This document shows, one piece after another, positions 10,662-61,437 of a DNA stretch of 64,000 nucleotides (its first letter is position 1; each line of letters starts with the position of its first letter). This DNA is from Nitrospinaceae bacterium (lineage in GTDB: Bacteria; Nitrospinota; Nitrospinia; Nitrospinales; VA-1). Below the pieces are notes generated by a model that saw nothing but the letters and a program-made list of their open reading frames with translations, ran no database searches and was not told the DNA's origin. Position numbers and translations under genes: made by a program. The DNA is taken from positions 6,091 through 70,090 of the forward strand of contig JALPWY010000001.1 of NCBI GenBank assembly GCA_023271875.1, given 5' to 3'.

Positions 10662-10815
10662 TTTAAAAAATTCCTTTACCACACCGCCACATGATTCATT
10701 GATGATTTGCAAAAGTCTTTATCTTACGTTACGCTCAAAATTATAAATAAACTAATGATTCGTGTCCGTGGGTATGAGTTCAAAAAAACTGTGCCGCGTG
10801 AAAATCATTTAGCTG

Positions 10816-26036: not shown

Positions 26037-26071
26037 AATGCCAGAAAGATTATTTTAGGAAACACTCTTTG

Positions 26072-26641
26072 TTAAGGATTCAAGAGAGTATTATTTGTGT
26101 TACCAGGAATTTTTGCGTTAGGAACCTTAAGTCCAAAAAAAGGGACAAGTTCATTTTGTTTTGAAAGTTTTTGGTAAAGTGTATGAAATTCTTTATCATC
26201 AAGATCTGGATTGAGCAATTGATTTACCTGAGCGGTTGTTACCTTCCGCTGAGAAGGCTCATCAAACATAGTAGTGCCTATTCCTATCCAGTGGCTATGA
26301 ATAAAATTCTGAGTCACTAAACTCCCCACTCCACCAGTGTATTTTATCGCTGTTGTCAAAACATGCCGAGCAATATATGCAGGTACGCAACGACCCACTG
26401 CAACAACATCCGAACTTTTTCCCATAGGGAAAGCCCTAAGCGCTGTACGCGTGTTCCCCATTTCAGTAAACTCTTTAGCTATTTTTCTTCTCTCTTTCCG
26501 GAATTTCTTCGAAATATAGCCTTCCACTTTAATTTTTTTCTTTTCAACTATTTGGCATGGAGTTTCCGCCTGAGTAGCCATCGGCTTAAGAACAAACAAA
26601 AACACGCCCAAAACCACGTAAATTATTAGACTTTTAAACAT
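26072..26641 (-). CDS. secreted protein of unknown family (paralog B)
   Basis: Signal peptide ...MATQAETP. Same conserved blocks as paralog A. Confidence 0.6.
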   Translation of the reverse strand: MFKSLIIYVVLGVFLFVLKPMATQAETPCQIVEKKKIKVEGYISKKFRKERRKIAKEFTEMGNTRTALRAFPMGKSSDVVAVGRCVPAYIARHVLTTAIKYTGGVGSLVTQNFIHSHWIGIGTTMFDEPSQRKVTTAQVNQLLNPDLDDKEFHTLYQKLSKQNELVPFFGLKVPNAKIPGNTNNTLLNP

Positions 26642-32584: not shown

Positions 32585-32586
32585 AA

Positions 32587-34178: not shown

Positions 34179-34345
34179 TGGCCGGTTCGTTGTTTGTAGT
34201 TTTCTGATTGTTTAGGGTCAACCCGTTTCATTCGCTTGAGAATATCATCACGACCCGGTCGTTCAACATTCGGACTAGATGGTCCTGATTCCTTGCGGTC
34301 GGGAGTAGGATCCTTTTTTTCTTCTCTTCTTAATGGATCGTTCAT
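34175..34345 (-). CDS. 56-aa UBact/Pup-type prokaryotic ubiquitin-like modifier (not in the ORF track)
   Basis: Read by hand: MNDPLRREEKKDPTPDRKESGPSSPNVERPGRDDILKRMKRVDPKQSENYKQRTGQ*. ATGA overlaps at both ends (dop-like stop, prcB start). C-terminal Gly-Gln. Occupies the position of pup in the canonical mpa-dop-pup-prcBA order. Confidence 0.75.
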   Translation of the reverse strand: MNDPLRREEKKDPTPDRKESGPSSPNVERPGRDDILKRMKRVDPKQSENYKQRTGQ

Positions 34346-35829
34346 AACCATGGGAATTGCTCCTTTTTGGAATTAATCAAATGTTCTACGTCAGCCGAGC
34401 TGACAACTTGAGAAAGATCTATAAAGTCACCGCCCGTAAACTCGATACCCGTCCAGTGAATATTTTTTATCTGATCCTCGCTGTTTGTAACGGCCAAGCC
34501 ACGCACCAGAGCCCTCGTATCTTCAGGTGGCTCTTTTATAGCGCGCTGAATTTCATCTTCAGAAAACATGGAGTATACATCACCTGCTTGCTCAAGTCCT
34601 CGGTACAAGCCTCTTTCTGGATCAAGATTATGATACTCTAAATCTAGGCTTTTTATCCAAGGATCATCCCAACCCACCCCTTCTGATTCAGTAAAACGGG
34701 TAAAAATATCTTTTTTTATTGCCCAATCAATTCGATCAGCTAGCTTTTCAGGGTGGTGTTTGAGTTCATTCAAAGTACGTGCCCATTCGCGGATAATCCA
34801 ATCCCTCTCTTTGCATTGCCCTGATAGATTTTTATCTGCTGCGTCAAGATAGAATTCTTGTATTTCAAGTGATGTTATCGTTTTGCCATTCCTACATTTC
34901 AAAGCAATAGTCCCTGTCTGGTCTCGAGAAATATTTTTAATATCATCAACTGGATTCTCTAGGGCCAAAGGCGATTCTAATTTATCTTCTCCAATTAGAG
35001 TCAAGATCAATCGAGTTGTTCCAACCTTCAAAGCAGTTGCATAAGGGGACATATTTGCATCACCTAGAATAAGGTGAAGTCGACGGTACTTGTCTTGTGT
35101 CGCATGGGGTTCATCCCGAGTATTAATAATAGGTCGTTGGGTCATCGTCTCTATACTCAATACCGTTTCTATAAAATCGGACCGCTGTGCAAGCTGGAGT
35201 CCACTAAATGAATTATCATCTTTAAGTTCAGTTCCGACCTTGCCAGCTCCTGCGTATAGTTGGCGAGTTATAAGAAACGGAACCAAACGTTCTACCCAAT
35301 GCTCAAAGGGAAGTCGACGTGATATGAGATAATTATCATGCGTACCGTAGCTATGCCCTAGATAGTCGGTGTTATTCTTGAATACGCAAACCCTACCAAC
35401 CTTGTCGTCTTGATTTCTTAGGTGAGCACACTCGGAAACAATGCGTTCACCGGCCAGATCATGCACCACTAATTGAAAAACACTGCCACATTCGGGGGTG
35501 CTATATTCTGGATGCGTGTGGTCATTATAAAACCTTGCTCCGTTTTCAAGTACCCGGTCGCGTTTCATCTCCCAATAACTGTAGGGACGTTTACGATCCT
35601 CAACGCAAAAAGCATCTTCTTCCTCGTCCTGTGCCAGAGAAGGCACATTAAACCCTCGCATATCCTGATGAGAACGTTCTCGAGAATAAGCCCAATTACA
35701 AAATTCACTTTTCATCTCACAGCGACGCACTAGGGCCATTGACTCCTCTACGACATCGTAACTTTCTACCTCATTGCGCACGATCCCATATTCTGTTTCT
35801 AGGCCTAACAAAGGAACTGAAGAACTCAT
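34342..35829 (-). CDS. dop: Dop-like deamidase/depupylase homolog
   Basis: LETEYG, NGARFYNDHTHPEYSTPEC, INTRDEPHAT, YRRLHLILGDANMS. It carries an extra ~30 residues between ETEYG and NGAR (WAYSRERSHQDMRGFNVPS...), resembling the Dop-specific loop. It lies directly upstream of the modifier gene. Confidence 0.8.
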   Translation of the reverse strand: MSSSVPLLGLETEYGIVRNEVESYDVVEESMALVRRCEMKSEFCNWAYSRERSHQDMRGFNVPSLAQDEEEDAFCVEDRKRPYSYWEMKRDRVLENGARFYNDHTHPEYSTPECGSVFQLVVHDLAGERIVSECAHLRNQDDKVGRVCVFKNNTDYLGHSYGTHDNYLISRRLPFEHWVERLVPFLITRQLYAGAGKVGTELKDDNSFSGLQLAQRSDFIETVLSIETMTQRPIINTRDEPHATQDKYRRLHLILGDANMSPYATALKVGTTRLILTLIGEDKLESPLALENPVDDIKNISRDQTGTIALKCRNGKTITSLEIQEFYLDAADKNLSGQCKERDWIIREWARTLNELKHHPEKLADRIDWAIKKDIFTRFTESEGVGWDDPWIKSLDLEYHNLDPERGLYRGLEQAGDVYSMFSEDEIQRAIKEPPEDTRALVRGLAVTNSEDQIKNIHWTGIEFTGGDFIDLSQVVSSADVEHLINSKKEQFPWL

Positions 35830-37445
35830 ATGATCGATCGGTTGAGAGTTTCAGCGGCAGCCTGGTCAGACTGGTTGGGTCGACGCACCCTTACCACATC
35901 GCGCGGATCTAGGTCAAGCAATTGAAGCCAATCCTCCAGATTTGATTCTGCGGGAAGCAAGTTGCCATCCGTAAACTCAGTTTTTAGACATTCTGTTAAA
36001 TCTTTGGACAAAATTTTTAACTCTTTTCCATCGATGGCTCTTTCAATTGCTTTTTCTTTGGTTCTTTTGACTATCCCCTCAATAATCGCACCAGAAATAA
36101 AGTCCTTCCAGTAAAGATTTTTGAGTTTACCAGTGCGTAGGGTAAGAACCAAAACCTTCTGTCGAGAGCTCTTCCTAAATAGGGCATCGAGAAATGGCTG
36201 AGTCATTTGATCAAGGTTTTCGTGCTCTCGAGGTAAATTAGGTTTAAGATAAACCCTAAGTATCGCATTGCAATCTTCACGATTGGGACGACCCACTTTT
36301 ATCTTTCGATCGATTCGGCCAGGTCTCAAGATGGCAGGATCTATCAGGTCGGGCCGGTTAGTGGCGAGAATAACAACAGCTTCTCGAAGCGATTGGATTC
36401 CATCCATCTCAGCACAGAACATAGGTACCAGCGTATTGCTGATATTATTTCCACGCATGGCCTGCCTTGTTCCAAGAATAGATTCTGCTTCATCAATAAA
36501 AATAAAAGGCACTTGGCCCTTTTCCTTATAATCACGCGCCTTTTTAAAAATTTCCCTTACTTTACGCTCCGACTCCCCAAGCCACATGTTAAGAATTTCG
36601 GGACCTTTGACATGGATAAATCGACCTTCGAGATCTTGATTAGATTCTTTTTCCTTAAGTTGACGAATGATGTCTGAAAGAATAGCTCTGCCAATGAGGG
36701 TTTTACCACAACCCGGAGGTCCGTAAAATAAAAAACCCTTTGGCAATTGGTATTCCATGGTTTTAAGAATATCCTTATGTAAAATAGGGTACTCGATAAC
36801 CTTGCGCACTTCCTCAATAACTTTAGATTGCCCTCCTACCTCGGACCAGTCGATTTGAGCCAAATCGTCTTCGATAACAACGCCAGACGTTCTCTTAGGT
36901 AGCCGAGCCAAAATAACCCGTTGGTTCGGGTCGAGAATGACCTCATCACCCACCTTCAATGTCTCTGTTTCCAGATCGGGGTGATTCGAGGCTAAGGTTT
37001 CGCTGTTGGCAGCTTGCCCGGTTATCAACCACTGTCCATCTGTTAATCGCGTGGTGATGCGAGCAATCGGCCCTTGCTCAGGCTTAGGCAACTTAGCTAT
37101 AGCAACAAACCCCTCGTTGAGCGCAACTTGATCACCAGGCTGAAGAGTTTCTTCTTCAAGAATTTCTGGAGAGACAGCAGCCTGATACTCTGTACCTCCA
37201 ACTACTAAACGATAAAGACCTCCCTTTCCCAGTCCCAACACAGTTCCAATACGGTGGGCAGGGGACTTTAACTTAGCAACGGTTTCCTCGAGATTTTTAA
37301 TTTTTAAAGCATATTGCTGTGATACCTGTTGCGCCTGAAATAATGCGTCTCGCAAATCAAAAATCTTCTCTTGGAGCTTAGGATTATCAGCCGTTTCACC
37401 CAAAAGTTGGTCAATCAGTTCGATAATATGGGGTTGGTCACCCAT
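35826..37445 (-). CDS. mpa: proteasome-associated AAA+ ATPase (Mpa/ARC family)
   Basis: N-terminal coiled coil, OB-like region, Walker A GPPGCGKTLIG, Walker B FIFIDEAES. ATGA overlap with the dop-like gene. Confidence 0.9.
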   Translation of the reverse strand: MGDQPHIIELIDQLLGETADNPKLQEKIFDLRDALFQAQQVSQQYALKIKNLEETVAKLKSPAHRIGTVLGLGKGGLYRLVVGGTEYQAAVSPEILEEETLQPGDQVALNEGFVAIAKLPKPEQGPIARITTRLTDGQWLITGQAANSETLASNHPDLETETLKVGDEVILDPNQRVILARLPKRTSGVVIEDDLAQIDWSEVGGQSKVIEEVRKVIEYPILHKDILKTMEYQLPKGFLFYGPPGCGKTLIGRAILSDIIRQLKEKESNQDLEGRFIHVKGPEILNMWLGESERKVREIFKKARDYKEKGQVPFIFIDEAESILGTRQAMRGNNISNTLVPMFCAEMDGIQSLREAVVILATNRPDLIDPAILRPGRIDRKIKVGRPNREDCNAILRVYLKPNLPREHENLDQMTQPFLDALFRKSSRQKVLVLTLRTGKLKNLYWKDFISGAIIEGIVKRTKEKAIERAIDGKELKILSKDLTECLKTEFTDGNLLPAESNLEDWLQLLDLDPRDVVRVRRPNQSDQAAAETLNRSII

Positions 37446-37680: not shown

Positions 37681-37749
37681 TTAGAAAGTCGATTTCATCA
37701 AAGTAGGATCGACGCAAAGTAATTGCTGCTTTACTTTTTTACCTTTTTT

Positions 37750-39075
37750 ATGGACCACATTAGGCCTTCAGCCAGTATCGATAAGTGCATCTTAAGCTTC
37801 AGCCATGATCGGTACACTTCACGAAAAAAGGCAAACGCTGCCGCTATTGCAAAAGCCGAACGTGAAATTGCATCTAACAGCAATGGTGTTAGCCACCTTA
37901 TCCTGCGAGCAACTGATGACAAAATAGACCATCTAAAGTTTCTCTTCCTTATCAACGGTATTCCTGTCATGTGTTACGCGCTAGGGAACCTACTAATTTC
38001 CAGCCTCAAAGAAATCGTCATCATAGGTTCCGAAGAAGTGGAGCAAGTTGCCACTAATTTTTTAGAAACAGTGGGGACGCAAGGGAAAAAAGTATCGTTT
38101 GTCAGAGAAGACTCAAATAAGTTAAACCTTTTTAACACTATGCAGTTAGGAAAACACCGGTTGAATATTGAGCCAAATGAATTGATTTTATTCCAACCTG
38201 GCGACCTACCATTCATGTTCGATATTGAAGAAATCCTGAACGATAGCGACATTCAAAATTACAATTTGATTCTTTGGCTTAACTCCAGACAAATGATGTT
38301 CCCGAATCACCAGCATAATCCAGACAGCGAATTTGTTCGGCGTAACTATCACTACCGCGCCCTTTGTAAAGAAACAAACGAACTACATGAAGTCAAAGAA
38401 CCCAACATTTATCCAATCAACCTGTCCGCAGTAGATTCAGACATCATTGACCATCTGCACTCAACAAGAAAAGATGGAAATATAATTAAGGCCGGTATCC
38501 GAAAAGCACTTTCTATGCCATCAAGAATATTAAAACTACTTCCCATAATGGCACACCACGCACTACACTTCAGGTCTGATTTAAAGCAATTTCGCAAGGA
38601 AGATAAATACCTGTTTGGAATGCAAAGAGATAATTTTGATCGCGCTGTTTCGGTTTTATTAGATACTGAATTCATAACCAAATTCCATAGCGCCCCAGCA
38701 TTTGTTTCTGATGTAGACGCGCTGGAAGATTGGGAAGACTTTGAATCCCTTACACATTATGCCAATCTTAAACATGGGGAGGAAGGCCTAGCACATATTC
38801 ATCCTTTTGGTGAAGAATTACTCCGCTTTCGTGAAGAACAAATGCCTAGCCTGAAAACCAAAATAGATATGTACAATAATTTCCCAGCCTACATCAATTC
38901 ATTTTACCAATCCCTCAAAATGAACCGTGTGCCTTTCCCGAATGGAAGTCGATACGTCCCACATAAGACTAACCATGAAAAAAACGGGTCTGCTCAAAAA
39001 ACAAAACATGCTTTTTCTTGGTATTCCAATAAATGCAACGCCGTTAAACTAGGGCGTGTTAGTCAAATTATTTAA
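37750..39075 (+). CDS. MobA-like/GT-A-fold nucleotidyltransferase-family protein with long C-terminal extension (hypothetical)
   Basis: INGIPVMCYALGNLL...EIVIIGSEE, LFQPGDLPFMF and VSDVDALEDWEDF resemble NTP_transf_3-type motifs, but the canonical G-x-G-x-R loop is not evident. Likely start ATG 37750. Confidence 0.45.
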   Translation: MDHIRPSASIDKCILSFSHDRYTSRKKANAAAIAKAEREIASNSNGVSHLILRATDDKIDHLKFLFLINGIPVMCYALGNLLISSLKEIVIIGSEEVEQVATNFLETVGTQGKKVSFVREDSNKLNLFNTMQLGKHRLNIEPNELILFQPGDLPFMFDIEEILNDSDIQNYNLILWLNSRQMMFPNHQHNPDSEFVRRNYHYRALCKETNELHEVKEPNIYPINLSAVDSDIIDHLHSTRKDGNIIKAGIRKALSMPSRILKLLPIMAHHALHFRSDLKQFRKEDKYLFGMQRDNFDRAVSVLLDTEFITKFHSAPAFVSDVDALEDWEDFESLTHYANLKHGEEGLAHIHPFGEELLRFREEQMPSLKTKIDMYNNFPAYINSFYQSLKMNRVPFPNGSRYVPHKTNHEKNGSAQKTKHAFSWYSNKCNAVKLGRVSQII

Positions 39076-47054: not shown

Positions 47055-47999
47055 TCAAGAATCAAATATCGCATCATGAAAACGAGACATTGTAGATCCA
47101 TCCATCACAAAATTAGATTTCATTTCAACCGATTCTCCTACGAGTTCTTGAAGCATCATTTCAGGAATATTTGCCCCCGCATGAATGGTATGTAAAACAC
47201 CACTGCCAAAACGTAAATTAATATCAGTAAACAAAAATTCTCCCGATTCCTCTAAAAATCCTTGTAAATTAGCAGGGCCGCGCAGTTGAAGTCGAGTGCC
47301 TAGTCTTTTAGCGGATTCAATAATGTCAGGAATCAATTCAATTCGACTTACCATCACCTCGCCCGCTCGCGCTACCAACCTTTCTCGAGGGACTACCACA
47401 ACGGGAAGACCTTTTTTATTTGAAAACCAGTCAATACTAAATTCCCTACCTTGAACAAATCGCTGAAAAATATGATTTGGTAATTTTTTTGAATAAAAAT
47501 CAAACTCGGTCTGATCTTCTATTTTGAAACAATTCCTTCCCCCTTCCCCGTATGGATCCTTGGCAATCAAAGGAAATCCGGGAAATGGCTTCTTAGGATC
47601 AATCAAATCTGGTGAAGCAAAATTGTTCTGTGTAAAAAATTCTGCAAGCCTACACTTATTATTACTAATTTGAATTAGAGTATGAGCTGCTAAGTAAAGT
47701 AATAAGTCCCCCTCATCAAACCCAGCGCGGTTTTTATCCATAAAGTCAATGGCTTTGTTAGTCATAGGAAGAATGGCATGAATATTTTCCTTGGCACAAA
47801 TAGCTTGTATTTTTTCGACGCATTTTGGTTCCGAAAATTCAGGGATCACGTAGCTTTTATCCACAACGTTTAATGCTGCAGAGTGAGAATCGCTATCCGC
47901 TCCAACTATAAAAATTTTTATAGCAGTTGACTTTTTAAACGAGCGGAGCAGTGAAACTCTCCAATTAGGCGCCAGAAAAAGAATACGAATATCTTTCAT
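47055..47999 (-). CDS. ATP-grasp domain enzyme (carboxylate-amine ligase type, specificity unknown)
   Basis: FPLIAKDPYGEGGRNCFKI, FQRFVQGREFSIDWF, ANLQGFLEESGEFLFTDINLRFGSG. Confidence 0.7.
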   Translation of the reverse strand: MKDIRILFLAPNWRVSLLRSFKKSTAIKIFIVGADSDSHSAALNVVDKSYVIPEFSEPKCVEKIQAICAKENIHAILPMTNKAIDFMDKNRAGFDEGDLLLYLAAHTLIQISNNKCRLAEFFTQNNFASPDLIDPKKPFPGFPLIAKDPYGEGGRNCFKIEDQTEFDFYSKKLPNHIFQRFVQGREFSIDWFSNKKGLPVVVVPRERLVARAGEVMVSRIELIPDIIESAKRLGTRLQLRGPANLQGFLEESGEFLFTDINLRFGSGVLHTIHAGANIPEMMLQELVGESVEMKSNFVMDGSTMSRFHDAIFDS

Positions 48000-48026
48000 T
48001 CAGTCAGACCTCTATCACCAAAGCCA

Positions 48027-48635
48027 TCAAATGGAACGAAGGCATTCTATTTCCCGTAGAATCTTTGCCGAAGCTCCCCAAACACAGTTGGTACCATGCC
48101 AATACACATACTTACTTTCTCGTACCTTGCTAGAAAGATTTCTTTGTTTAGTGGAAAGTAGCTCGAGCAGCGGTATCTCAAATACACTCTCAACCTCATC
48201 GCTCAATTCACCAATCCTTGGAAGAGTCTGCAAAATAGCAACATAAGGAGTTACTTCGTATCCTGTAAGGGTTGTCACAACAGGAAGGGTGGCGTTTATC
48301 AAAACATCATCCAACTCCAATCCAATCTCCTCCTTCGTCTCTCTGAGCGCAGTCGACAATAAGTCGCCATCCTCATCTTCGTACCTTCCTCCTGGAAACG
48401 ACATTTCTCCAGGATGGATTTTTAAGTGTTTAGAGCGGAGAGTCATCAAAACAAAAATCTTATCATCACTAAGATACAATACCACCATGACCGATGCTAT
48501 CTGCGGACTCCGTACCACTGGTCCTCGAACAACGGGATGATGGTTTTCCATCTTAGTTTTTAAAGAGATTAAGTCCACAGCAAACCATTCACAGTTTAGT
48601 CTTTGATAAAAACAGTTTTGCTCTTTTAAGACCAA
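48027..48635 (-). CDS. Nudix hydrolase, CoA pyrophosphatase-like
   Basis: Nudix box GGRYEDEDGDLLSTALRETKEEIGL, preceded by LMTLRSKHLKIHPGEMSFPGG (NuCoA-type motif). Start uncertain (TTG 48635 or ATG 48551). Confidence 0.75.
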   Translation of the reverse strand: MVLKEQNCFYQRLNCEWFAVDLISLKTKMENHHPVVRGPVVRSPQIASVMVVLYLSDDKIFVLMTLRSKHLKIHPGEMSFPGGRYEDEDGDLLSTALRETKEEIGLELDDVLINATLPVVTTLTGYEVTPYVAILQTLPRIGELSDEVESVFEIPLLELLSTKQRNLSSKVRESKYVYWHGTNCVWGASAKILREIECLRSI

Positions 48636-52425: not shown

Positions 52426-53775
52426 ATGAAAGAAGCAAAAGATATTGATGACAGCCTTGAATTTTTACGTTCGTTTGAAAAAAACGCAAACAATACTGAG
52501 CTTGGAGAACTCATCCTCCAAAGACTCGACCATCATAATAAAAGCCTCAACTTACAAGGGAACCGGTTTACAGAAACTGAATTTCAAAGTCTATTTTCAT
52601 TCGAATCTCTAAAGCATCTAAAATCAATTGACCTTAGTGAAACAGGGATGAATTCTAAGGCAATTAAACATCTTTGTTCATCTAAGTGGCTACACCACAT
52701 AACATCGCTACCATTAGCCAATAATAACTTAGACGATGAAGGAATATTTTTATTATCCAAAACAAACTGCCTCCCAAAGCTTACGTCTCTAGATTTATCA
52801 AGCAATGAGATTGGGGCATTAGGAGCAAAAGTTCTATCTCTTTCAAAATCACTTAATAGGATTTGCAGCCTAAATATTTCCTACAATCGGATTGAACCCT
52901 TAGGAGTCGACTCTTTAGCAAATTCTGATTTTGGACGACAATTAAAGTTTTTGCAACTTCGCGATACTTGCCTTGGAAACGAAGGAATGAAAAGTTTCTC
53001 TTCCTTCCGTTTAAACGAACTAGAATCACTTGATCTTTCAGACAATGCAATTTCTGATGCAGGATTAGAAACGTTAGCAACATCTAACTCGTTTCCAAAT
53101 CTAAAGAAATTAGTGCTGAACAATAATCACATAGGAGATGATGGTATTTATGCCCTATCCCAATCGAATATGTTTTGCAATCTTGAATCGTTGTTTCTTG
53201 CTAATAACGATTTAACAACTGATAGTGCAATTTCAATATCAGAATCACGTACTCTTACCCAGTTAAAAAGTCTCGACATTAACAATAATGATATTCGTGC
53301 TGAAGGAACAAAAGCGTTATCTGAATCGCCTAATTTAAAATCTATCGAATATCTGGACTTGGGAGAAAATAGATTAGGAACCGAAGGGGCAAAGGCTCTT
53401 GCTCAAAGTCCTAATATGAAAACATTAAAATTTTTGCGCTTAAATAATAATGACATTAAAGATGCGGGGATATCTGAAATGGCTAAATCAAAATATTTCA
53501 CTTCTCTCGAAAATCTTTTTTTAGAAAATGAAAATTGGATTCATTCTGAAGGGGCAAAATCTCTTGCAGTTTCAACTTCTTTCCCGTTGTTACGAATACT
53601 TGTACTTACTTTGAACGCAATAGGAGATGAAGGTGCTTTTCATTTAGCTGGAGAAAATAATTTAAATACTTTGGAGCAACTCAACGTCGCTGGAAATAAA
53701 ATTAGCCCAAGAGGCGAAGATGCCCTTAGAAACTCTCCTTATCTTCAGCACCTTAAAAATCTAGAACTGGTCTAG
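52426..53775 (+). CDS. ribonuclease-inhibitor (RNI)-type leucine-rich repeat protein
   Basis: About 14 tandem ~28-aa repeats of the form L..L.L..N.IGDEGA..LA.S....L (e.g. LKKLVLNNNHIGDDGIYALSQSNMFCN). No signal peptide. Confidence 0.8.
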   Translation: MKEAKDIDDSLEFLRSFEKNANNTELGELILQRLDHHNKSLNLQGNRFTETEFQSLFSFESLKHLKSIDLSETGMNSKAIKHLCSSKWLHHITSLPLANNNLDDEGIFLLSKTNCLPKLTSLDLSSNEIGALGAKVLSLSKSLNRICSLNISYNRIEPLGVDSLANSDFGRQLKFLQLRDTCLGNEGMKSFSSFRLNELESLDLSDNAISDAGLETLATSNSFPNLKKLVLNNNHIGDDGIYALSQSNMFCNLESLFLANNDLTTDSAISISESRTLTQLKSLDINNNDIRAEGTKALSESPNLKSIEYLDLGENRLGTEGAKALAQSPNMKTLKFLRLNNNDIKDAGISEMAKSKYFTSLENLFLENENWIHSEGAKSLAVSTSFPLLRILVLTLNAIGDEGAFHLAGENNLNTLEQLNVAGNKISPRGEDALRNSPYLQHLKNLELV

Positions 53776-53939: not shown

Positions 53940-54743
53940 TTACTTCCTGGCTAGGAGATTAAATGTGTTCTGAGTTTTTAAGACACTAGTTGCAAGGAAA
54001 GAGCTGAAGCCAAACCGTCTGGCGCAATATTTCTCAACTTTTAGGACTTTTAACCCTTCTTTGGTGAATAAGTCCGTTAGTCTGTGTGGATCTATTCCAC
54101 CAAATTGTCTTTGATAATCTGCGTGGTGATACTCATTCTCTAAAATCGATATTCTTTGCCGCGTCATTTTTCGTCGATAAAAAGCCTCATCAATATTAGC
54201 TAACGTCTTATGCATACTATAACGAATGGGTGTATTGATATTCTGTTTGAGAGGTTCAAAGAATATAAGAAACACTCCTCCAGGAATTAATCGATCGCAA
54301 TACATTTTTATCACCGATTCAAAATCGTACAGATGATGCAATAAAGCTGAGACGATAATCGCAGAGTATTTCTTATCATCGATATTAGCGAATGTTTCTA
54401 CATCACTGACAACTAATCGCGAACACTTCCTGTAATCCTTTGGGATTCGGCCTTCCAACACTCTTATCATTTCGGTTGATAGGTCGACTCCTGTTATTTC
54501 ATATCCTCGCTTTAAAAACTCGAGATACAAATAACCTGTCCCACATCCCAGCTCTAAAATACTTTCTCCCGAAGGATTCATCTCAAAACAAACACGATCG
54601 ATTGTTTTTCTTAGTATACGAGCTTGATAGAAATTGGTTTGTTCAGGGTGTCTATCAAGATAAAACTGATCTTCAAGTTTGTGGACACGTTTATTTTCTT
54701 CTAAAACCTTTTCTCTAGTCAGCGTCGATTCGGGAATTCTCAT
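53940..54743 (-). CDS. class I SAM-dependent methyltransferase
   Basis: Motif I ILELGCGTGYL, followed by an acidic motif II (GVDLS). Confidence 0.8.
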   Translation of the reverse strand: MRIPESTLTREKVLEENKRVHKLEDQFYLDRHPEQTNFYQARILRKTIDRVCFEMNPSGESILELGCGTGYLYLEFLKRGYEITGVDLSTEMIRVLEGRIPKDYRKCSRLVVSDVETFANIDDKKYSAIIVSALLHHLYDFESVIKMYCDRLIPGGVFLIFFEPLKQNINTPIRYSMHKTLANIDEAFYRRKMTRQRISILENEYHHADYQRQFGGIDPHRLTDLFTKEGLKVLKVEKYCARRFGFSSFLATSVLKTQNTFNLLARK

Positions 54744-54751
54744 TTTATTAA

Positions 54752-55597
54752 TTATTTGCTCAAAGTATTAATAAAAAAACGTTTCTCTGCCTTACTGCTT
54801 TCACACTCGTTACAATTAGCACAAGTATCAGGGAATTCACCTTTTAGATGCTGTTCACGCAGAAGATCCATCTTTTCGTTTTTCCACAAATTTGGGACTG
54901 TTTCATTTTGAGCACTCCCAATCATGAGGTTTGCATTGTAGTCAACGCAACAGGGAATTACTCTACCGTCCCATAGAACAACTAACTTCCCGTAGTCTTT
55001 CCCAAAAGGTTCTGGACAAACTTCGGTGCGAGGACTAGTGATTAGTTTTGGCTGTAAACGAACATGATCTACAATTTTTTCCCAGTGGGTAATATAATCC
55101 TCCGCATCCCCTTCCGTATCTTCTTCAACAGTAAAAACCACACCCATTTTTAATTTGGGACGTCTTTTCTCTTTTACTTTCTTTAGCTTATTAATATTTT
55201 GTTCGATGTTTTGTAGTTCTACCCCTCTTACGCGCTTAAAGGTCTCCGCCGAACCGTCAATCGAAAAACGAATGATATCTAGTTTACTGTCAACAATCTG
55301 ATCAATCATTTTATTCGTAAGGAGGGTCCCGTTAGTATTCATAACTACGTAATTGACCCCTTTGTTTTTGGCGTATTCAATCATCCTAAAAATATCCTTG
55401 TGCAAAAGGGGCTCTCCCCAATTATGCATGCACAAGTGTTCTAGGTCTGGACTGTCATCGATTATTTTTTTAAATAAATCAAATTCCATGAATCCACCTT
55501 CACGAGTCATACCCTCTGTTACAAAGCAAAAGGTGCAACGTAAGTTGCATGTATTTGTCGGTTCTATAATTAGAGATGTTATTTTTTTTACTTCCAT
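54752..55597 (-). CDS. radical SAM enzyme with Cys-rich SPASM/twitch-like C-terminus
   Basis: CNLRCTFCF (CX3CX2C). C-terminal CCVDYN...CANCNEC. ATG 55597 shares one base with the GT2 stop. Confidence 0.8.
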   Translation of the reverse strand: MEVKKITSLIIEPTNTCNLRCTFCFVTEGMTREGGFMEFDLFKKIIDDSPDLEHLCMHNWGEPLLHKDIFRMIEYAKNKGVNYVVMNTNGTLLTNKMIDQIVDSKLDIIRFSIDGSAETFKRVRGVELQNIEQNINKLKKVKEKRRPKLKMGVVFTVEEDTEGDAEDYITHWEKIVDHVRLQPKLITSPRTEVCPEPFGKDYGKLVVLWDGRVIPCCVDYNANLMIGSAQNETVPNLWKNEKMDLLREQHLKGEFPDTCANCNECESSKAEKRFFINTLSK

Positions 55598-56526
55598 CAA
55601 TCGATTACCTTGTGCACGATGTATTCAGGTCGATTTTGTATTTTCAAATGAACCCGACCAAGATATTCACCAAGAAAGCCAATAGACAATAATTGAACCC
55701 CTGCAAAAAAAGAAAATACCGCTGATAATACAACAAAGCCTTCAATTAAAATTCCAGCTACCAAGCGCTGATACAACAGAAACATCATTATAGAAAAGCC
55801 CACACCAGCACCCAATAACCCCAAATAAGTAACCAGGCGTAATGGAAAATTAGAATAACCCGTAATCAAATCCCAGGTTAAGCGAAGGAGTGGCAAGACT
55901 CCGTATTTTGTTTGGCCCATTTTTCTTAAATGATGATCAACTTCCACATGTACAGTGGGAACTGCCATCCAACTCATCAATACTGCCATATAGCGGGATC
56001 GATCTTGACATTGATCAATTTTTTCAATAACGCTTCGACGCATTGCGCGAAAAGAACTCAAATTTAATTTAAAACGGTTTCCAAACAGTACCTGTGCTAA
56101 AGAATGGAGCACCTTCGACCCTAAAATCCTTAATACACTATCCCGACGTTTACGCGGAATAGTTACAACAAGGTCGACTTCATCAGTGAAAGCACCTAAC
56201 AACCTCTTTATTTCTTCTGGTGGATTTTGCAAGTCTGAATCAATTTGAACAACAATATTGCCCCGGCTTTCTCGAAAACCAGCCAGAACAGCAGCTTGCT
56301 GACCAAAGTTCCTAGTAAACTTTACAACACGTATATTAGAATCTATTTTTTTCCATTTGCATATCAATTCGAATGAATTATCCGAACTACCATCGTCCAC
56401 AAATAGCAACTCGTACGATTTACCCCAGCTTTCGGCCTCTTTCTTTAGACGGGGATAAAACTCATGTAATACCAGCTCCTCGTTAAAAACTGGAATAACT
56501 ACTGAGACCTGTAATGAATCCATCAT
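55597..56526 (-). CDS. family 2 glycosyltransferase, polyprenyl-phosphate sugar transferase type (ArnC/GtrB/DPM1-like)
   Basis: SVVIPVFNEE, VDDGSSDNS, QIDSDLQNPPEE, plus two C-terminal TM helices. Confidence 0.85.
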   Translation of the reverse strand: MMDSLQVSVVIPVFNEELVLHEFYPRLKKEAESWGKSYELLFVDDGSSDNSFELICKWKKIDSNIRVVKFTRNFGQQAAVLAGFRESRGNIVVQIDSDLQNPPEEIKRLLGAFTDEVDLVVTIPRKRRDSVLRILGSKVLHSLAQVLFGNRFKLNLSSFRAMRRSVIEKIDQCQDRSRYMAVLMSWMAVPTVHVEVDHHLRKMGQTKYGVLPLLRLTWDLITGYSNFPLRLVTYLGLLGAGVGFSIMMFLLYQRLVAGILIEGFVVLSAVFSFFAGVQLLSIGFLGEYLGRVHLKIQNRPEYIVHKVID

Positions 56527-56663
56527 AAATCCTTAATTTTAACAAAATGCGTGGCACCGAATTCTTCCCGGGAAATCTAATTATTAACTAATGGTTTTGA
56601 TTCTCTTCGGTCAATATATTGCGCTCAAAAAGTGAAGGTACTTTTTTCAGAGCAGACCAAATT

Positions 56664-58082
56664 TTATGTCGGGGCGTTGGTTGGAGCAATTGCATTTCGC
56701 CACAGTAATGCTAGTGGAGTATTTATCATGGATCGCATGATCCACTTTGGTTCAACTGCCCGGAGTACATGTCTAAAGCGTTGTATGCTTAAATAAAATT
56801 TTCGATTTGCTTCTCGTTTTAGTTTGACCAGGTCGTCTCCCTCCACCTCGCTTGCATTACATGATGCAGCATCGAAAGTATACTCAGAGAAATCTTCGAA
56901 GTTACTTTCTCTAGATTCGATAAAAGTCTGTCTTAAATCTGTTCCTGGATTCGGGATTACCAGTGAAAAATTAGCCGTTGTTAAACCCAGATCGCATGCA
57001 AAGTCTATTGTTTCTTTCATCTCGTCCCGAGTTTCAGATGGAAAACCTAACATGAAAAACCCATGGACACTCATTCGAGCACGTGTAAGTTTTTCAACGA
57101 CGTCATATATTATATTTATATCTAAATTCTTTTTTATCATGTCTTGAATTCTTTGAGAGCCGGACTCTATTCCCAATGCCATCCTATACACGCCGGCCCT
57201 TTGCATTTTATCAATCAACTCGTCATCAAAAAAATCTGCGCGTAATCCATTGGGGAACGATATGTGGATATTTAAATTTCTCTGGATGATGGCATCTAAA
57301 ACGATTTTGGCTCTTTTCATATTAACGTTGAATACATCGTCCACAATATGAAACTCTCTAATACCATATTCATTGATCAGGTATTCTATTTCATCAACTA
57401 CTGCCTTTGGTGAACGATACTGAATGGATTTATCAAAAATATCATGGCAGTAGGTGCATTTGAACGGGCATCCTCGTGAAGTCACTAAGGGAAGAAATCT
57501 TTTATTTCTAAAAACAGGGAAGAAATCCATGGAGGATTGAAAATTAAAATATCGTTCTAGATTAATTAAATTATACTCTTGATCAAATTTATCTAGATCA
57601 CGAATAACCGGTCGGTCCGCTGTACGAATATAAGATCCATTTTTTTTGTAAGCGATCCCCGGAACATTTTCAATATCCCTATCTTGTTCCAAGGCATCGA
57701 TCAACTCTACAATGGTAAGATCACCTTCCCCGCTTACCATCAAATCGACATTAGGGTCATTTAGAATAAATTGTGGCTCATGTGAGCAGTGAGGCCCACC
57801 AAAAACAATTTTTACCCCTGGGTTTATTTCTTTAACTTTAGCGGCATCGACAAATCCATATTTACACTCAATGGTCATAACCCCTATTCCGACAACTTGT
57901 GGGTCAAATGACCTCATGACAGACTCTAACTCTTCATCCGGAGAGTTAGAAATTCTAAGATCAAGGATTTTAACTTGGTGTCCAGCTCTTTTTAAGACAG
58001 AACCTATCGCCAATAAACCAAGAGGCAAGACACGTGCCATCGATTTTTTTTCTGCTGCTGGTCTCAATAATAAAACTTTCAT
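56664..58082 (-). CDS. B12-binding-domain radical SAM enzyme (class B-like)
   Basis: N-terminal Rossmann-like B12-binding region (KVLLLRP...GHQVKILD...VVGIGVMT). Radical SAM cluster SRGCPFKCTYCHD. Confidence 0.8.
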   Translation of the reverse strand: MKVLLLRPAAEKKSMARVLPLGLLAIGSVLKRAGHQVKILDLRISNSPDEELESVMRSFDPQVVGIGVMTIECKYGFVDAAKVKEINPGVKIVFGGPHCSHEPQFILNDPNVDLMVSGEGDLTIVELIDALEQDRDIENVPGIAYKKNGSYIRTADRPVIRDLDKFDQEYNLINLERYFNFQSSMDFFPVFRNKRFLPLVTSRGCPFKCTYCHDIFDKSIQYRSPKAVVDEIEYLINEYGIREFHIVDDVFNVNMKRAKIVLDAIIQRNLNIHISFPNGLRADFFDDELIDKMQRAGVYRMALGIESGSQRIQDMIKKNLDINIIYDVVEKLTRARMSVHGFFMLGFPSETRDEMKETIDFACDLGLTTANFSLVIPNPGTDLRQTFIESRESNFEDFSEYTFDAASCNASEVEGDDLVKLKREANRKFYLSIQRFRHVLRAVEPKWIMRSMINTPLALLWRNAIAPTNAPT

Positions 58083-58095
58083 ATATATCTATTCC

Positions 58096-59214
58096 TTATT
58101 TTTCTGATCCAATGTACTCGGACTGGCAACAACCTAGACAACCAGGAAATATTTTTTCGTTTTTAATTCGTTCACGGAACTCGCGCGACCTCTCTCCATT
58201 CCATGGAGAAATATTGCCTTCATTAACAAAACTCCCTAGTCTGTAATGAGGGCAACTAAAAATATCTCCATACGCAGAAAAGGCCATCTTAGTCCATGGA
58301 GTATAGCAACGGTAATTCTTATAAGAACTTTGATTAGAATAGTACCGAACAATTTCATCCGGTGTTATGTAGTTCGGCGAAAATCGTAGCTGAGATGAAT
58401 AGGCTTTCTCTCTTGTTAGCAATAAATCGAGTTGCCCTTTTAAAATTTTTGGATCGATCTCTTCGATTTGTGGCGTTTTTTCTAACAAGTGATTATCTTG
58501 GTCGTAATCTTTTGCATGCCAATAGGTTGCCGGGTTTTGCAAAACAAAGTTACAAACGTTAACTCCTAGTTTTTCAGCGTAATCATAAAGTGGTACTAAA
58601 TCCATCACATTACCCGAGCTAATTACACAAGTAAGGTGTATTAGGGGATATTTTTCACCAAATATTTTTCGTTGACCGACAAGACGTTCTAAACCCGCTC
58701 GTGTTTTTTTATATGAACCAGGAACCACCGTCACCTTGTCGTGAAACTCTTCACGGCCTTCAAGCGAAACTCCCATGTATAGCAATCCTGAACTAAATAA
58801 AGAACGCGTGCGGAGATCGATTAATTGTTTCACCACGTTCTCTGATAAAGACATTCCGTTCGTAATAATGTGAACCTTGTGATTATTGGCAGCATACTTC
58901 AATATATCCATGAAATCTGCCTTCATAAATGCCTCGCCACCAGTAAAGGTGATCAAGGTGGATCGAGGGAGTGATGCAATCGCGCGTTTTATTTGCTCAG
59001 TTGACAGCTCTTTTTTGTAGGTCTTATTATTTTCTGTGTCTTCTATAATTTCAAGAAAGTGGCACATGTCACAACGCAGGTTACACCGATAAGTCACTTC
59101 AAAATAAACATGCGCTGGAGGAAACGCACGGCCAGGATCAAGGTAATAAGGTAAGAAGGAATACAATCTAGGTAAAACCTTCTGTAGGCTTTTTAATGTA
59201 AATAAATTTGTCAT
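58096..59214 (-). CDS. radical SAM enzyme with SPASM-like C-terminal Cys motifs
   Basis: YRCNLRCDMCHF. C-terminal CYTPW...FSCPHY...PGCLGCCQSE. Confidence 0.8.
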   Translation of the reverse strand: MTNLFTLKSLQKVLPRLYSFLPYYLDPGRAFPPAHVYFEVTYRCNLRCDMCHFLEIIEDTENNKTYKKELSTEQIKRAIASLPRSTLITFTGGEAFMKADFMDILKYAANNHKVHIITNGMSLSENVVKQLIDLRTRSLFSSGLLYMGVSLEGREEFHDKVTVVPGSYKKTRAGLERLVGQRKIFGEKYPLIHLTCVISSGNVMDLVPLYDYAEKLGVNVCNFVLQNPATYWHAKDYDQDNHLLEKTPQIEEIDPKILKGQLDLLLTREKAYSSQLRFSPNYITPDEIVRYYSNQSSYKNYRCYTPWTKMAFSAYGDIFSCPHYRLGSFVNEGNISPWNGERSREFRERIKNEKIFPGCLGCCQSEYIGSEK

Positions 59215-59218
59215 TAGA

Positions 59219-59926
59219 TTAATTAGTATTCCAGTTCATTAAAACATCAAGGCTCTTATCACCAGCATTAAACAGAAGATCAACCAACGACATATTTGGT
59301 ATAAATCCAGAATATTGTTGCGAGTATCTCGGGTGATCGTACTCCTGATATTCCAACTCAACTCCCTTTTGTGAAAAGTCATCCCCTGATAAATAATCAT
59401 GGGCAAGACCTCCGGTAAGGTAGTGAGTTGCACCCATCTTTTGACAAAGGTTTAAAATTCGGTCAGCTTTTACCCCTTCCACCGAAATGGTGGATGACTT
59501 AAAAGTCTGAGTAGTTATTTTCAGAACCTCCTTAAGATATCCCGTCGTCTCGTAACATAAGTCTAGCAAAAACTCCCATCGCTTTTGATAAACAGAATCA
59601 AAATAGGGGTAATAGTTTTCAAAAAATGGGGCGTTCGAATAATTAAATCTGATTGCAGCGCAATGTTTTTTACTCCAATTGGTGGAATTATCGATACGCG
59701 TATCCTTGAGTAATTGCGTGTAAAGATTTTTTTGCTGTACAGGAACCGTCAACCAAGCCCAACCTTCATTAGTTCGTATCTTATTACGGTTTCTCCAATC
59801 ACGTCTCGTATATTGAACATCATCGAGATACACGAATTGATCCGCTCGCTCCATCTGCTCAAAATAACCAATCCACGGCAGATAGGATGGCTGCAATATC
59901 ACCACACGATTTGCCGGATAGGTCAC
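59219..59926 (-). CDS. WbqC-family protein
   Basis: VVILQPSYLPWIGYFEQM matches the WbqC N-terminal signature. I prefer GTG 59926 as the start because the track start at 59989 overlaps rfbB by 49 nt. Confidence 0.7.
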   Translation of the reverse strand: MTYPANRVVILQPSYLPWIGYFEQMERADQFVYLDDVQYTRRDWRNRNKIRTNEGWAWLTVPVQQKNLYTQLLKDTRIDNSTNWSKKHCAAIRFNYSNAPFFENYYPYFDSVYQKRWEFLLDLCYETTGYLKEVLKITTQTFKSSTISVEGVKADRILNLCQKMGATHYLTGGLAHDYLSGDDFSQKGVELEYQEYDHPRYSQQYSGFIPNMSLVDLLFNAGDKSLDVLMNWNTN

Positions 59927-59940
59927 TGACTCAACTTCGC

Positions 59941-60972
59941 TTATTTTTGTCCCCAAAGTTCTTTCATCCACAAAAATTTTTCCCACCACTGTTTGTTATT
60001 TTTATAAAATTCAACTGTCCGTTGGAGCCCATCATCTAAGTTGATTTTTGCAGTCCATCCTAGTAAACGGCGCGCCTTTTCAGTTGAAGAAATATGCCGA
60101 GAAACTTGGCCTGGTCTGTCTTTTACATGCTCAATCAAATTCTGAGATCTATCGACAAGGCCCAACACCTTCTGCGCTATAGTAAGGATATCTGTATCTA
60201 TACCTGTGCCTAAGTTTATTGCTTCACCAACTACCTTTTTAGAATCAGCGTGCATAATTAGGTCTAAAGCTTCGCAAGTATCCTCTACAAACATCCAGTC
60301 ACGCAAACTCTTGCCACCTCCATGAACTGTCAATTTCTGATCATTGAGTGCGCTAGTAATAAAATTAGGGATCGCTTTTTCTAAATGCTGAAATGGACCA
60401 TAGTTATTAAACGGTCTTACAATGACAGCGGGAAGTCCATAAGTATGCACATAAGAATAAACCAACCGATCCGCACCTGCCTTTGCTGCTGCGTATGGAC
60501 TCATAGGGTTTAAAGGATGATCCTCGCTCATTGGAGTATTTATAGCTGTCCCATAAACCTCCGAAGATGAAATATGAATAAAACGTTCTACAGGATGGTT
60601 AACTATTGCGTTTGCGAGCACCTGAGTGCCAATGACATCTGTTTCAAAAAATAATGAGTTGTCATAGATCGAGCGAGTCACGTGTGACTCTGCCGCAAAG
60701 TGAATCACAATATCGCTATCCGAAACTAACTGATTGACAATATCAGGTTGTGTTACGTTGCCGTGAGAAAACTGGAAGTGTCCGTTTGATTTTAAATTAT
60801 TTGAAATATTTTCCAGGTTTCCGGCATAAGTGAGCGCATCAAGAAGTTGTATCTTATAATTTGGATATTTCTTATGAATGTAGTTAATAAAATTACTTCC
60901 TATGAATCCAGCGCCACCAGTAACAAGAAGATTCTTTTTATGAGAAGTCATTTTTTTGGAGAGAATTGGCAA
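59941..60972 (-). CDS. rfbB: dTDP-glucose 4,6-dehydratase
   Basis: LVTGGAGFIGSNF, SSSEVYG, YAAAKAGAD (YxxxK), C-terminal WW-containing tail. Confidence 0.9.
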   Translation of the reverse strand: MPILSKKMTSHKKNLLVTGGAGFIGSNFINYIHKKYPNYKIQLLDALTYAGNLENISNNLKSNGHFQFSHGNVTQPDIVNQLVSDSDIVIHFAAESHVTRSIYDNSLFFETDVIGTQVLANAIVNHPVERFIHISSSEVYGTAINTPMSEDHPLNPMSPYAAAKAGADRLVYSYVHTYGLPAVIVRPFNNYGPFQHLEKAIPNFITSALNDQKLTVHGGGKSLRDWMFVEDTCEALDLIMHADSKKVVGEAINLGTGIDTDILTIAQKVLGLVDRSQNLIEHVKDRPGQVSRHISSTEKARRLLGWTAKINLDDGLQRTVEFYKNNKQWWEKFLWMKELWGQK

Positions 60973-61437
60973 AATCAGGTAGTCAGTTGTCTAAAGCCAC
61001 CTGATGATTTTACATTAAAAATGTTTGAGTTACGATAAACGCCCTGATATTACTTTTCGGACAAAAACATCTTTTCCTTTAGGCTCCAAAAGGCCTTTAA
61101 ATTGTTTTAAAATGGTTGTTTAGCCGAAAAAGCCATTGTGCCTCACGGGATATGGAGACTTTTTTACTGGGACTATAACCCTTTTAAAAATAAAAGCTTG
61201 CGGGTAAATGTGGTCTCAGTTTCAAATATTCATAATAGAATTGTGATCGAAGTTGGCTACTCTTTGCTGCCGTAGATAGGACCTTTCTACACATTCTCAG
61301 GCAAAAAGAACCAATAAACCACACCCGATATTTGTTAAATCCGAACCAAAAAATAGCTAAGTATAATTTTAGAACCACCAAAAAAAGGTGGAGTCTGATT
61401 ATGCAACTTCTTAAAGGTCTTCTGGAGTCGAGACTGC

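Follow-up and report, generated by a model that had tools for sequence, protein, structure and literature searches.

A predicted seven-gene operon that combines radical S-adenosylmethionine (SAM) enzymes with a predicted lipid-carrier glycosyltransferase lies at positions 53940-60972, on the minus strand, of a 64-kb stretch of DNA (the window) from contig JALPWY010000001.1 of a Nitrospinaceae bacterium assigned to Candidatus Nitromaritima. The operon probably makes a sugar that is tailored by radical chemistry on a polyprenyl (undecaprenyl) phosphate carrier and is destined for an envelope glycan, although our confidence in any single step of such a pathway is much lower than in this general model. 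The observations behind it are the domain identities of the encoded enzymes, the architecture of the operon, its conservation, and the association of its radical SAM proteins with glycan clusters that contain glycosyltransferases of family 2 (GT2). Nitrospinae are regarded as the main nitrite oxidizers of the ocean, and their cell surface is little known.

Gene organization of the operon

All seven open reading frames (ORFs) were confirmed where an earlier note on this DNA had described seven closely packed, co-directional minus-strand genes, and their order recurs across Nitrospinae. The gene labels proposed in that note match the Pfam, NCBIfam, and PDB assignments, with corrections for "RfbB" and "SPASM" that are given below. 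From 5' to 3' on the minus strand, the features are:

60973..61135 (-), conserved non-coding block directly upstream of the SDR gene
59941..60972 (-), RmlB/RfbB-like extended short-chain dehydrogenase/reductase (SDR), 343 aa, assigned by Pfam, NCBIfam, and PDB matches
59219..59926 (-), WbqC-family protein (PF08889), maximal ORF to 59989, assigned by Pfam (266 bits)
58096..59214 (-), rSAM1, a radical SAM protein of 372 aa with a weak SPASM match
56664..58082 (-), B12-rSAM, a class B (B12-binding) radical SAM protein of 472 aa, assigned by PF02310 and PF04055
56527..56663 (-), non-coding gap of 137 nt, 3' of the B12-rSAM gene, which holds the ribosome-binding site of the GT2 gene
55597..56526 (-), GT2 of the ArnC/GtrB/PgfS family, assigned by its match to PDB 9bhc (E 1.9e-64)
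54752..55600 (-), rSAM2, a compact BtrN-like Twitch radical SAM protein of 281-282 aa, with radical SAM and SPASM matches
53940..54743 (-), class I SAM-dependent methyltransferase (MT), 267 aa, assigned by Methyltransf_11/23/25

The SDR and WbqC genes overlap or, with a WbqC start at the GTG at 59926, lie 14 nt apart, and the later junctions measure, in order, 4, 13, 137, -1/-4, and 8 nt. The GT2/rSAM2 junction is a TGATG stop/start overlap, through which rSAM2 is translationally coupled to GT2; rSAM2 probably starts at the ATG at 55597. The G+C content of the operon equals that of its flanks. Consensus scans for promoters and terminators returned sites no more commonly than in shuffled sequence, and the 137-nt gap yielded none of them. 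The block of about 160 nt at 60973-61135, which immediately precedes the SDR gene, is near-invariant among the window and the related loci L002-L004, in contrast to the remainder of the 465-nt intergenic region, where substitutions and indels abound. It was not found in the other loci and probably serves as a promoter, operator, or 5' leader of the Nitromaritima clade alone. A structured RNA was considered for it and rejected, because Rfam gave no match, no covariation was seen, and the folding z-score was -1.6.

Homologues of RmlA, RmlC, RmlD, and a sugar aminotransferase were found neither in the cluster nor among the window ORFs of at least 150 aa, so that the absence of RmlA, the epimerase, the ketoreductase, and the aminotransferase, which had been reported for the cluster, extends to the whole 64 kb. 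Among the same ORFs, none has NTP_transferase, dTDP_sugar_isom, or an RmlD-type protein as its best assignment, and none encodes a GT-C transferase or a flippase. Linked GT-C proteins were also sought by tblastn in the window and in 12 Nitrospinae loci, with nine queries from related clusters (six PMT_2 proteins and three unannotated membrane proteins), and the sole match was a protein of L006, described below.

Conservation in Nitrospinae

A comparison of gene neighborhoods across genomes, which the earlier note had recommended, recovered the operon in the same order at a single syntenic position (NadE-ElbB ... SMC) in no fewer than nine lineages of Nitrospinae, with protein identities of 54-98%. 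Searches of the fetched loci with the cluster proteins (tblastn) showed the same seven genes in the same order beside ElbB/NadE in L002-L004. The six-gene operons of L081/L082, L088, and the P0142 contig occupy the same NadE-ElbB...SMC site, and the L081 proteins are 54-71% identical to those of the window. Since gene order and site recur in lineages with only 54-71% protein identity, the grouping of these genes is not due to chance. The operon is an old, vertically inherited feature of the core genome of the family, because the syntenic site is shared by diverged lineages and the G+C content matches that of the flanks.

The core of the operon is SDR-WbqC-rSAM1-GT2-rSAM2-MT. Because the three Nitrospina lineages with the six-gene operon lack B12-rSAM, this gene is considered an accessory insertion, and the 137-nt gap follows it. 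The description of the cluster as dominated by three radical SAM enzymes thus does not hold as a rule. Every variant that includes the GT2-rSAM2-MT trio has it intact and coupled, with the MT gene as the last of the operon. In L009, an SDR-WbqC-rSAM1-B12 module lies about 5 kb from the gene for a Wzt O-antigen ABC-transporter ATPase, and no homologue of GT2, full-length rSAM2, or the methyltransferase was detected in that locus.

Relatives of rSAM1 and rSAM2 in other phyla

Outside Nitrospinae, we examined the gene context at seven loci, five with relatives of rSAM2 (31-39% identity) and two with relatives of rSAM1 (37-38%). This comparative context is the strongest functional evidence for the operon. 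An ArnC-size GT2 is present in six of the seven contexts and a PMT_2 GT-C protein in four; for the rSAM2 relatives taken separately, the figures are four and two of five. Most of the loci also carry sugar SDRs, DegT aminotransferases, methyltransferases, or B12-rSAMs:

L072, Nitrospiraceae metagenome-assembled genome (MAG): B12-rSAM, PMT_2 GT-C, ArnC-size GT2, SDR, DegT aminotransferase, MT, and a radical SAM protein
L084, Omnitrophota: ArnC-size GT2 (27% identical, full length), three PMT_2 proteins, two B12-rSAMs, and several MTs
L016, Omnitrophota: GT2 and GT4 glycosyltransferases, further radical SAM proteins, B12-rSAMs, SDRs, and an MT
L083, Saganbacteria: sugar SDRs, B12-rSAMs, an MT, and a PIG-L deacetylase, with no GT2 or GT-C in the locus
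L085, a deltaproteobacterium: ArnC-size GT2, another radical SAM protein, and two unannotated proteins, each of which has about six hydrophobic segments
L086 (rSAM1 relative): sulfatase-family protein, PMT_2/TMEM260 GT-C, a small protein with four hydrophobic segments, a radical SAM protein, two GT2s, and DegT
L087 (rSAM1 relative): GT2, B12-rSAM, ArnC-size GT2, MT, a radical SAM protein, SDR, and an ATP-grasp protein, followed by DegT, an SSE-type SDR (61% identity), a Wzz-like protein, and a PMT_2-CBM60 protein

In these contexts, GT2 and GT-C proteins represent machinery for loading a sugar on polyprenyl phosphate and transferring it in the periplasm. The presence of the rSAM1 and rSAM2 relatives in such glycan clusters supports radical tailoring of a polyprenyl-phosphate-linked envelope sugar and speaks against the maturation of a peptide.

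More speculatively, these loci may belong to a broad, so far unrecognized class of envelope-glycan systems in Nitrospinota, Nitrospirota, Omnitrophota, Saganbacteria, and a deltaproteobacterium, in which Twitch and cobalamin radical SAM enzymes tailor a nucleotide- or polyprenyl-phosphate-linked sugar; we regard this wider reading as possible but doubtful. Candidate reactions, as part of the same reading, would be O2-independent oxidation or epimerization, C-methylation, and even ring contraction to a carbasugar. If true, radical chemistry of a kind documented so far only for antibiotics and lipid head groups would also shape cell envelopes, Nitrospinae would display a kind of sugar not yet described in any lipopolysaccharide (LPS), and B12-rSAM would add a lineage-specific extra carbon.

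Enzymes encoded by the operon

Every enzyme of the operon misses the curated equivalog cut-offs. The SDR is closest to the dTDP-glucose 4,6-dehydratases, and its TIGR01181 score of 339.2 bits is below the equivalog threshold (cut-off 365.1). Its best PDB matches span E 1e-55 to 1e-79, with 6bi4 at the top (E 2.8e-79), and both the NAD site GGAGFIGS (GxxGxxG) and the catalytic YAAAK (YxxxK) are intact. The protein reads SSSEVYG where 6bi4 and 2hun read STDEVYG, and thus departs from the Thr-Asp-Glu dehydration triad (S/T-T-D-E-V-Y-G). This Asp-to-Ser change is kept in all Nitrospinae orthologues and in the 61%-identical homologue of L087, which is on an unrelated contig. Dehydration by the SDR is nevertheless possible, because GDP-mannose dehydratase and UDP-xylose synthase act with a T/S-S-E set. 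The product need not be a 4-keto-6-deoxyhexose, and the sequence is consistent with a nucleoside diphosphate (NDP)-sugar 4-oxidoreductase or dehydratase with an atypical active site. Of the features expected under the label "rfbB", closeness to the RmlB family, the NAD site, and YxxxK are present; the triad Asp, an equivalog score, and the RmlA/C/D partners are missing.

The WbqC protein matches PF08889 with 266 bits (gathering threshold 21.3), and this match together with the orthologues favors the GTG at 59926 as its start, giving 235 aa; this is probably the true start. It has no sequence match in the PDB, and Foldseek returned nothing significant for its AlphaFold2 model (pLDDT 86), at best faint similarities (TM ~0.3) to Rossmann folds of the TyrRS/cytidylyltransferase type. 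In Nitrospinae, WbqC is the sole other non-radical enzyme encoded beside the SDR. On Bacillus cereus-group plasmids, wbqC is flanked by two DegT genes, an SDR gene, and a GNAT gene on one side and by a PIG-L deacetylase gene on the other, and a published tRNA-ProX operon groups WbqC with GT4 and LmbE (PMC10404621). The L087 cluster encodes DegT and an ATP-grasp protein and has no detectable WbqC. The contexts of WbqC outside Nitrospinae are those of amino-sugar pathways, and we read it as a putative nucleotide-sugar tailoring enzyme.

The GT2 aligns end to end with ArnC (PDB 9bhc, E 1.9e-64, residues 6-308) and GtrB (5ekp, E 3.3e-50). It scores 101.6 bits against PF00535, 240 bits against NF007986 (ArnC; cut-off 529), and 203 bits against PgfS. 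ArnC orthology is thus not reached, and the Arn partners (ArnA, B, D, T, E/F) are absent from the window. In a crude Kyte-Doolittle scan, hydrophobic segments occupy the C-terminus at about residues 231-290 (windows with hydropathy >1.6 start at 231-235 and 242-268), which is consistent with two transmembrane helices, the count of two being our interpretation. From this likeness, the protein is a predicted polyprenyl-phosphate glycosyltransferase of the ArnC/GtrB family. The proposal that the sugar is transferred to a polyprenyl phosphate carrier accordingly gains a full-length family member as its enzyme, and lacks a linked flippase or GT-C partner. The MT has no equivalog-level match.

The CX3CX2C motif of rSAM1 is at C44/C48/C51, and a Twitch-like set near its C-terminus, C303-X12-G-X4-C321 ... 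C359-X2-C362, was read from this single sequence. Clustered at 50% identity, the rSAM1 family falls into 162 groups with E <= 1e-30. For rSAM2, an alignment of 29 sequences (rSAM2 and 28 relatives) gave as invariant cysteines C18/C22/C25 (CX3CX2C) and C195/C217/C260/C263, so that only four auxiliary cysteines are conserved instead of the seven-Cys SPASM set. This sequence pattern is that of a single-cluster Twitch domain. In both proteins the motif begins too early, at residue 44 in rSAM1 and residue 18 in rSAM2, to accommodate an N-terminal domain for peptide recognition. Among PDB sequences, rSAM2 is matched best by BtrN (E 3.5e-14), which is also the top fold match of the rSAM2 AlphaFold2 model (pLDDT 86; 4m7t, E 3.6e-13, TM 0.63/0.72). 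CteB, DesII, anSME, and BlsE follow, SuiB is also among the fold matches, and other SPASM/Twitch radical SAM proteins score almost equally; DesII and BlsE are both sugar-acting. In sequence and predicted fold, rSAM2 thus appears most like the carbohydrate dehydrogenase BtrN. Classification of the three radical SAM proteins with hidden Markov models, as suggested in the earlier note, identified SPASM domains and B12-binding plus Radical_SAM domains, and no cut-off for a characterized subfamily was reached. The "SPASM-like" cysteine motifs of that note are four-Cys, Twitch-like sets; Pfam SPASM matches are present (weak for rSAM1).

B12-rSAM matches PF02310 (64 bits) and PF04055 (88 bits), with CX3CX2C at C205/C209/C212. 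Its best NCBIfam match is BchE (206 bits, cut-off 481); others, which include ApyD, HpnJ, and P-methylases among the sub-threshold matches, fall further below their cut-offs. Proteins from Candidatus Nitromaritima genomes match B12-rSAM with 97-98% identity. Nitrospinae account for every orthologue with at least 60% identity, and beyond them identity is at most 38%. One orthologue (68% identity), in L006 (Nitrospinaceae MAG OFTM324, 6881-11425), lies outside the operon and is oriented divergently next to an 864-aa PMT_2 (GT-C) protein and a flavin amine oxidase. An amine oxidase is present in the L072 glycan cluster too. The nearest relatives outside Nitrospinae (<=38%) form tandem arrays of up to seven paralogues (L010 5519-15979; L012, L025, L011, and L016) in candidate division LCP-89, Elusimicrobia, Omnitrophota, and others. 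In the window, a CAA-to-TAA change (56664-56669, compared with L002 11411-11425) stops B12-rSAM two codons early (472 aa; 474 aa in most relatives), which is probably harmless. An Rfam scan of the whole window gave no match, and hence no cobalamin riboswitch upstream of B12-rSAM.

Proposed pathway

In the pathway that we infer, the substrates, the order of the steps, the chemistry of each step, and the acceptor are all proposals. The RmlB-like SDR would oxidize an NDP-hexose, made by enzymes encoded elsewhere, at C4, with dehydration optional, after which WbqC and the Twitch-type rSAM1 would modify the activated sugar. In some lineages, the cobalamin-dependent radical SAM enzyme would add a further change, most plausibly a C-methyl group. 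The ArnC/GtrB-type GT2 would then move the sugar to polyprenyl phosphate at the inner membrane face, and the BtrN-like rSAM2 and the SAM methyltransferase would finish the tailoring, either just before this transfer or on the lipid-linked sugar; the likeliest chemistry would be an oxygen-independent oxidation or epimerization and then methylation. Precedents for tailoring a sugar that is already lipid-linked are ArnD and DprE1/E2. An unlinked flippase and GT-C transferase would finally move the sugar onto LPS or another periplasmic acceptor. Since the operon includes neither, both must be encoded elsewhere.

Several observations weigh against this pathway. No nucleotidyltransferase is linked to the operon, and a flippase (GtrA, ArnE/F) or GT-C is absent from the window and, in most Nitrospinae relatives, from within 10 kb. 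All matches of the radical SAM proteins (and of the MT) to characterized families are far below the curated cut-offs. The context in other phyla comes from homologues with 31-39% identity, so function may differ there. The SDR lacks the Asp of the RmlB catalytic triad, L007 and L008 carry a non-orthologous SDR (27-28% identity, with an SSCSLYG motif) in place of the RmlB-like one, and the L005 operon is without WbqC; the early steps of the pathway are therefore not fixed. The substrate named in the earlier note, dTDP-4-keto-6-deoxyhexose, is likewise not established, given the SSSEVYG motif, the TIGR01181 score below cut-off, and the SDR exchange in two lineages. The overall reading of that note is otherwise retained, with a polyprenyl-type GT2, a sugar-type rSAM2, glycan contexts, and no sign of peptide maturation in its favor; its 4-keto-6-deoxyhexose substrate and its rule of three radical SAM enzymes are not.

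Alternative explanations

The radical SAM proteins could instead serve a lipid head-group pathway, in which the GT2 glycosylates a hopanoid polyol, diacylglycerol, or carotenoid and the radical SAM enzymes reshape either that sugar, once lipid-bound, or the lipid; contraction of a ring to give a cyclitol would be one example, along the lines put forward for HpnI/HpnK/HpnJ and calditol synthase. Radical remodeling of lipid-bound sugars is documented for calditol synthase (Cds) and proposed for HpnJ in a 2026 review (PMC13459092). B12-rSAM has sub-threshold matches to HpnJ (166 bits), HpnR, and a lipid-biosynthesis B12-rSAM, rSAM1 and rSAM2 weakly match the tetraether synthase Tes (GDGT-MAS), and BtrN, the best match of rSAM2, acts on a carbocycle. 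Against these points, the cluster scores are three- to sevenfold under the hopanoid cut-offs (HpnH 47/225, HpnJ 167/578, and HpnA 54/368 bits), and the window has no squalene-hopene cyclase (shc) or other hpn gene, so the specifically hopanoid version was rejected. Both ArnC and GtrB, with which the GT2 can be aligned along its entire length, use undecaprenyl phosphate, and the homologous radical SAM proteins elsewhere occur mostly with PMT_2 GT-C, DegT, or Wzz genes, that is, in glycan pathways. A lipid head group is thus an unlikely product. An aminoglycoside-, nucleoside-, or cyclitol-like soluble metabolite is quite unlikely as well, even though antibiotic pathways are the source of the nearest characterized radical SAM relatives (BtrN, DesII, BlsE, AprD4, and the cobalamin-dependent methylases TsrM and TokK), because the GT2 is a membrane enzyme of the ArnC/GtrB type, genes for an exporter, for resistance, or for a regulator are absent, GT-C transferases accompany the relatives, and the operon is syntenic, part of the core genome, and of host G+C content across the whole family.

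A third possibility is that SPASM-type radical SAM enzymes and B12-rSAM modify a ribosomal peptide, which is then glycosylated and methylated, as in a peptide made by the ribosome and modified after translation (RiPP). The Pfam SPASM matches, the sub-threshold matches to peptide maturases (ApyD at 171 bits, PapB, CcpM, and WgkB), and the presence of CteB and SuiB among the fold matches would fit this explanation, although all of the peptide-maturase models are far below their cut-offs. There is no conserved small ORF in or beside the cluster, including the 137-nt gap and the 465-nt upstream gap. The only two candidates, one of 35 aa that spans the B12-rSAM stop and one of 65 aa upstream of the SDR gene, are broken by single-base indels in close relatives, and in L004 such frame-breaking indels extend across the 35-aa ORF. 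The cluster has no RRE/PqqD domain, with CX3CX2C starting at residues 18 and 44, and no protease or ABC exporter. The rSAM2 family keeps four auxiliary cysteines instead of seven, an NDP-sugar SDR and WbqC are present, and the homologues are found in glycan clusters. We therefore rejected the RiPP explanation, for want of a precursor ORF, an RRE, a protease, an exporter, and a seven-Cys SPASM set, and consider it very improbable; the earlier note had argued in the same direction from its failure to find a precursor-peptide ORF.

Other genes in the window

The surroundings of the operon are housekeeping in character, with NadE, ElbB, SMC, a leucine-rich-repeat (LRR) protein, aromatic amino-acid genes, and a Pup-proteasome operon. 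The last, at 31112-37445 (-), looks complete, comprising genes for an AAA ATPase that carries proteasomal OB domains (35826-37445), two proteins of the Pup-ligase family (34342-35829 and 31112-32584), and two subunits of the proteasome (33378-34178 and 32587-33381). Convergent with the end of the seven-gene operon is the gene for the 449-aa LRR protein (LRR_6/LRR_4; 52426-53775, +), which has 75-92% identity in L002-L004; in more distant Nitrospina loci, its position is taken by a 450-aa protein with no Pfam match on record. A PylC-like ATP-grasp protein (PylC-like_N, ATP-grasp_3, and ATPgrasp_Ter; 47055-48635, -) adjoins a NUDIX hydrolase at a distance of about 6 kb from the operon. The same three domains are found within glycan cluster L087, which may be a coincidence. 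An MMPL-family transporter (833 aa) adjoins an MlaC-like lipid-binding protein at 2597-5984 (-) and may form a lipid export pair with it, unlinked to the operon. Four ORFs (323, 184, 189, and 450 aa) within 6488-7459, 25482-26641, and 37723-39075 have no Pfam match at E <= 1e-5.

Significance and comparison with known systems

Coupled as they are in this operon, an ArnC-type lipid-carrier GT2 and two or three radical SAM enzymes point to a kind of sugar chemistry found in no characterized envelope pathway. Both radical SAM families recur with GT2s, and mostly with GT-C proteins, in several mostly uncultured phyla, so that solving one system would annotate many, and similar radical SAM-rich rfb genes track with virulence in Brachyspira. 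The operon is also tractable, being small (six to seven genes), and the presence or absence of B12-rSAM amounts to a natural experiment. The WbqC matches include two proteins on contigs of chromosome size, 3.25 and 3.37 Mb, so cultured Nitrospina strains may carry the operon.

The gene set is that of no characterized O-antigen, capsule, hopanoid, or Arn pathway; the earlier note had named membership in a characterized O-antigen, capsule, or hopanoid pathway as a ground for abandoning its reading, and none was found. In full-text literature searches, no characterized pathway emerged in which radical SAM enzymes are linked with polyprenyl-phosphate or nucleotide-sugar chemistry, only general papers on B12-dependent radical SAM enzymes. 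The first gene recalls the dTDP-L-rhamnose/6-deoxyhexose pathway (RmlA-D, rfbBADC) in that its product is closest to RmlB, yet RmlA, RmlC, and RmlD are absent from the window, and the SDR has SSSEVYG and misses the TIGR01181 cut-off.

Among the closest known systems are ArnC/ArnT (addition of 4-amino-4-deoxy-L-arabinose to lipid A), GtrA/B/C (O-antigen glucosylation), and PgfS, with which the operon has in common a GT2 that can be aligned along its whole length with ArnC and GtrB, the hydrophobic C-terminal segments of this GT2, and its pairing with an NDP-sugar SDR. In other phyla, related clusters also include the PMT_2/ArnT-like GT-C that would be expected and, in some cases, a DegT aminotransferase. 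The Nitrospinae operon differs from the Arn and Gtr systems in having no linked ArnA, ArnB, ArnD, ArnT, ArnE/F, GtrA, or GtrC, and in a GT2 that scores 240 bits where 529 are required. None of these systems, PgfS included, has a counterpart of the two Twitch radical SAM proteins, B12-rSAM, or WbqC.

Radical SAM enzymes that act on sugars or cyclitols in antibiotic pathways (BtrN, SpeY, DesII, BlsE, and AprD4, to which GenK and GenD1 can be added) resemble those of the operon individually. rSAM2 shares the size, the CX3CX2C plus four-Cys Twitch pattern, and the predicted fold of BtrN, and B12-rSAM shares the class B architecture. Identity is only ~19%, however, and those enzymes act on soluble antibiotic intermediates, whereas the operon is a conserved core-genome feature with a membrane GT2. 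In HpnI/HpnK/HpnJ, which make the cyclitol ether of bacteriohopanetetrol, and in Cds, a glycosyltransferase is followed by a radical SAM enzyme that remodels a lipid-bound sugar, as has been proposed in the case of HpnJ, and B12-rSAM weakly matches HpnJ; the HpnJ, HpnH, and HpnA cut-offs are nonetheless widely missed, and neither a hopanoid nor a tetraether context surrounds the operon.

In the literature, the closest parallel is a cluster of deoxysugar and glycosyltransferase genes on plasmid pBHWA1 of Brachyspira hyodysenteriae, where rfb genes are interleaved with about seven radical SAM/SPASM genes and have been proposed to shape lipooligosaccharide, and where part of the block correlates with virulence (PMC4267127). 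In our annotation of this plasmid (L090, 5748-18506), seven radical SAM/SPASM genes lie among rfbF, rfbC, an SDR gene, and glycosyltransferase genes, and six of them match rSAM2 at 26-36% identity; identities of 27-30% to rSAM2 were also recorded for the genes of this block. The plasmid block differs in having rfbF, rfbC, GT1, RgpF, and HAD genes and no ArnC-type GT2, WbqC, or B12-rSAM, and it is plasmid-borne and strain-variable, whereas the Nitrospinae operon is chromosomal and syntenic. The operon is probably of a known kind, the polyprenyl-phosphate-sugar systems for envelope modification, and the new element is the proposed tailoring by radical SAM enzymes.

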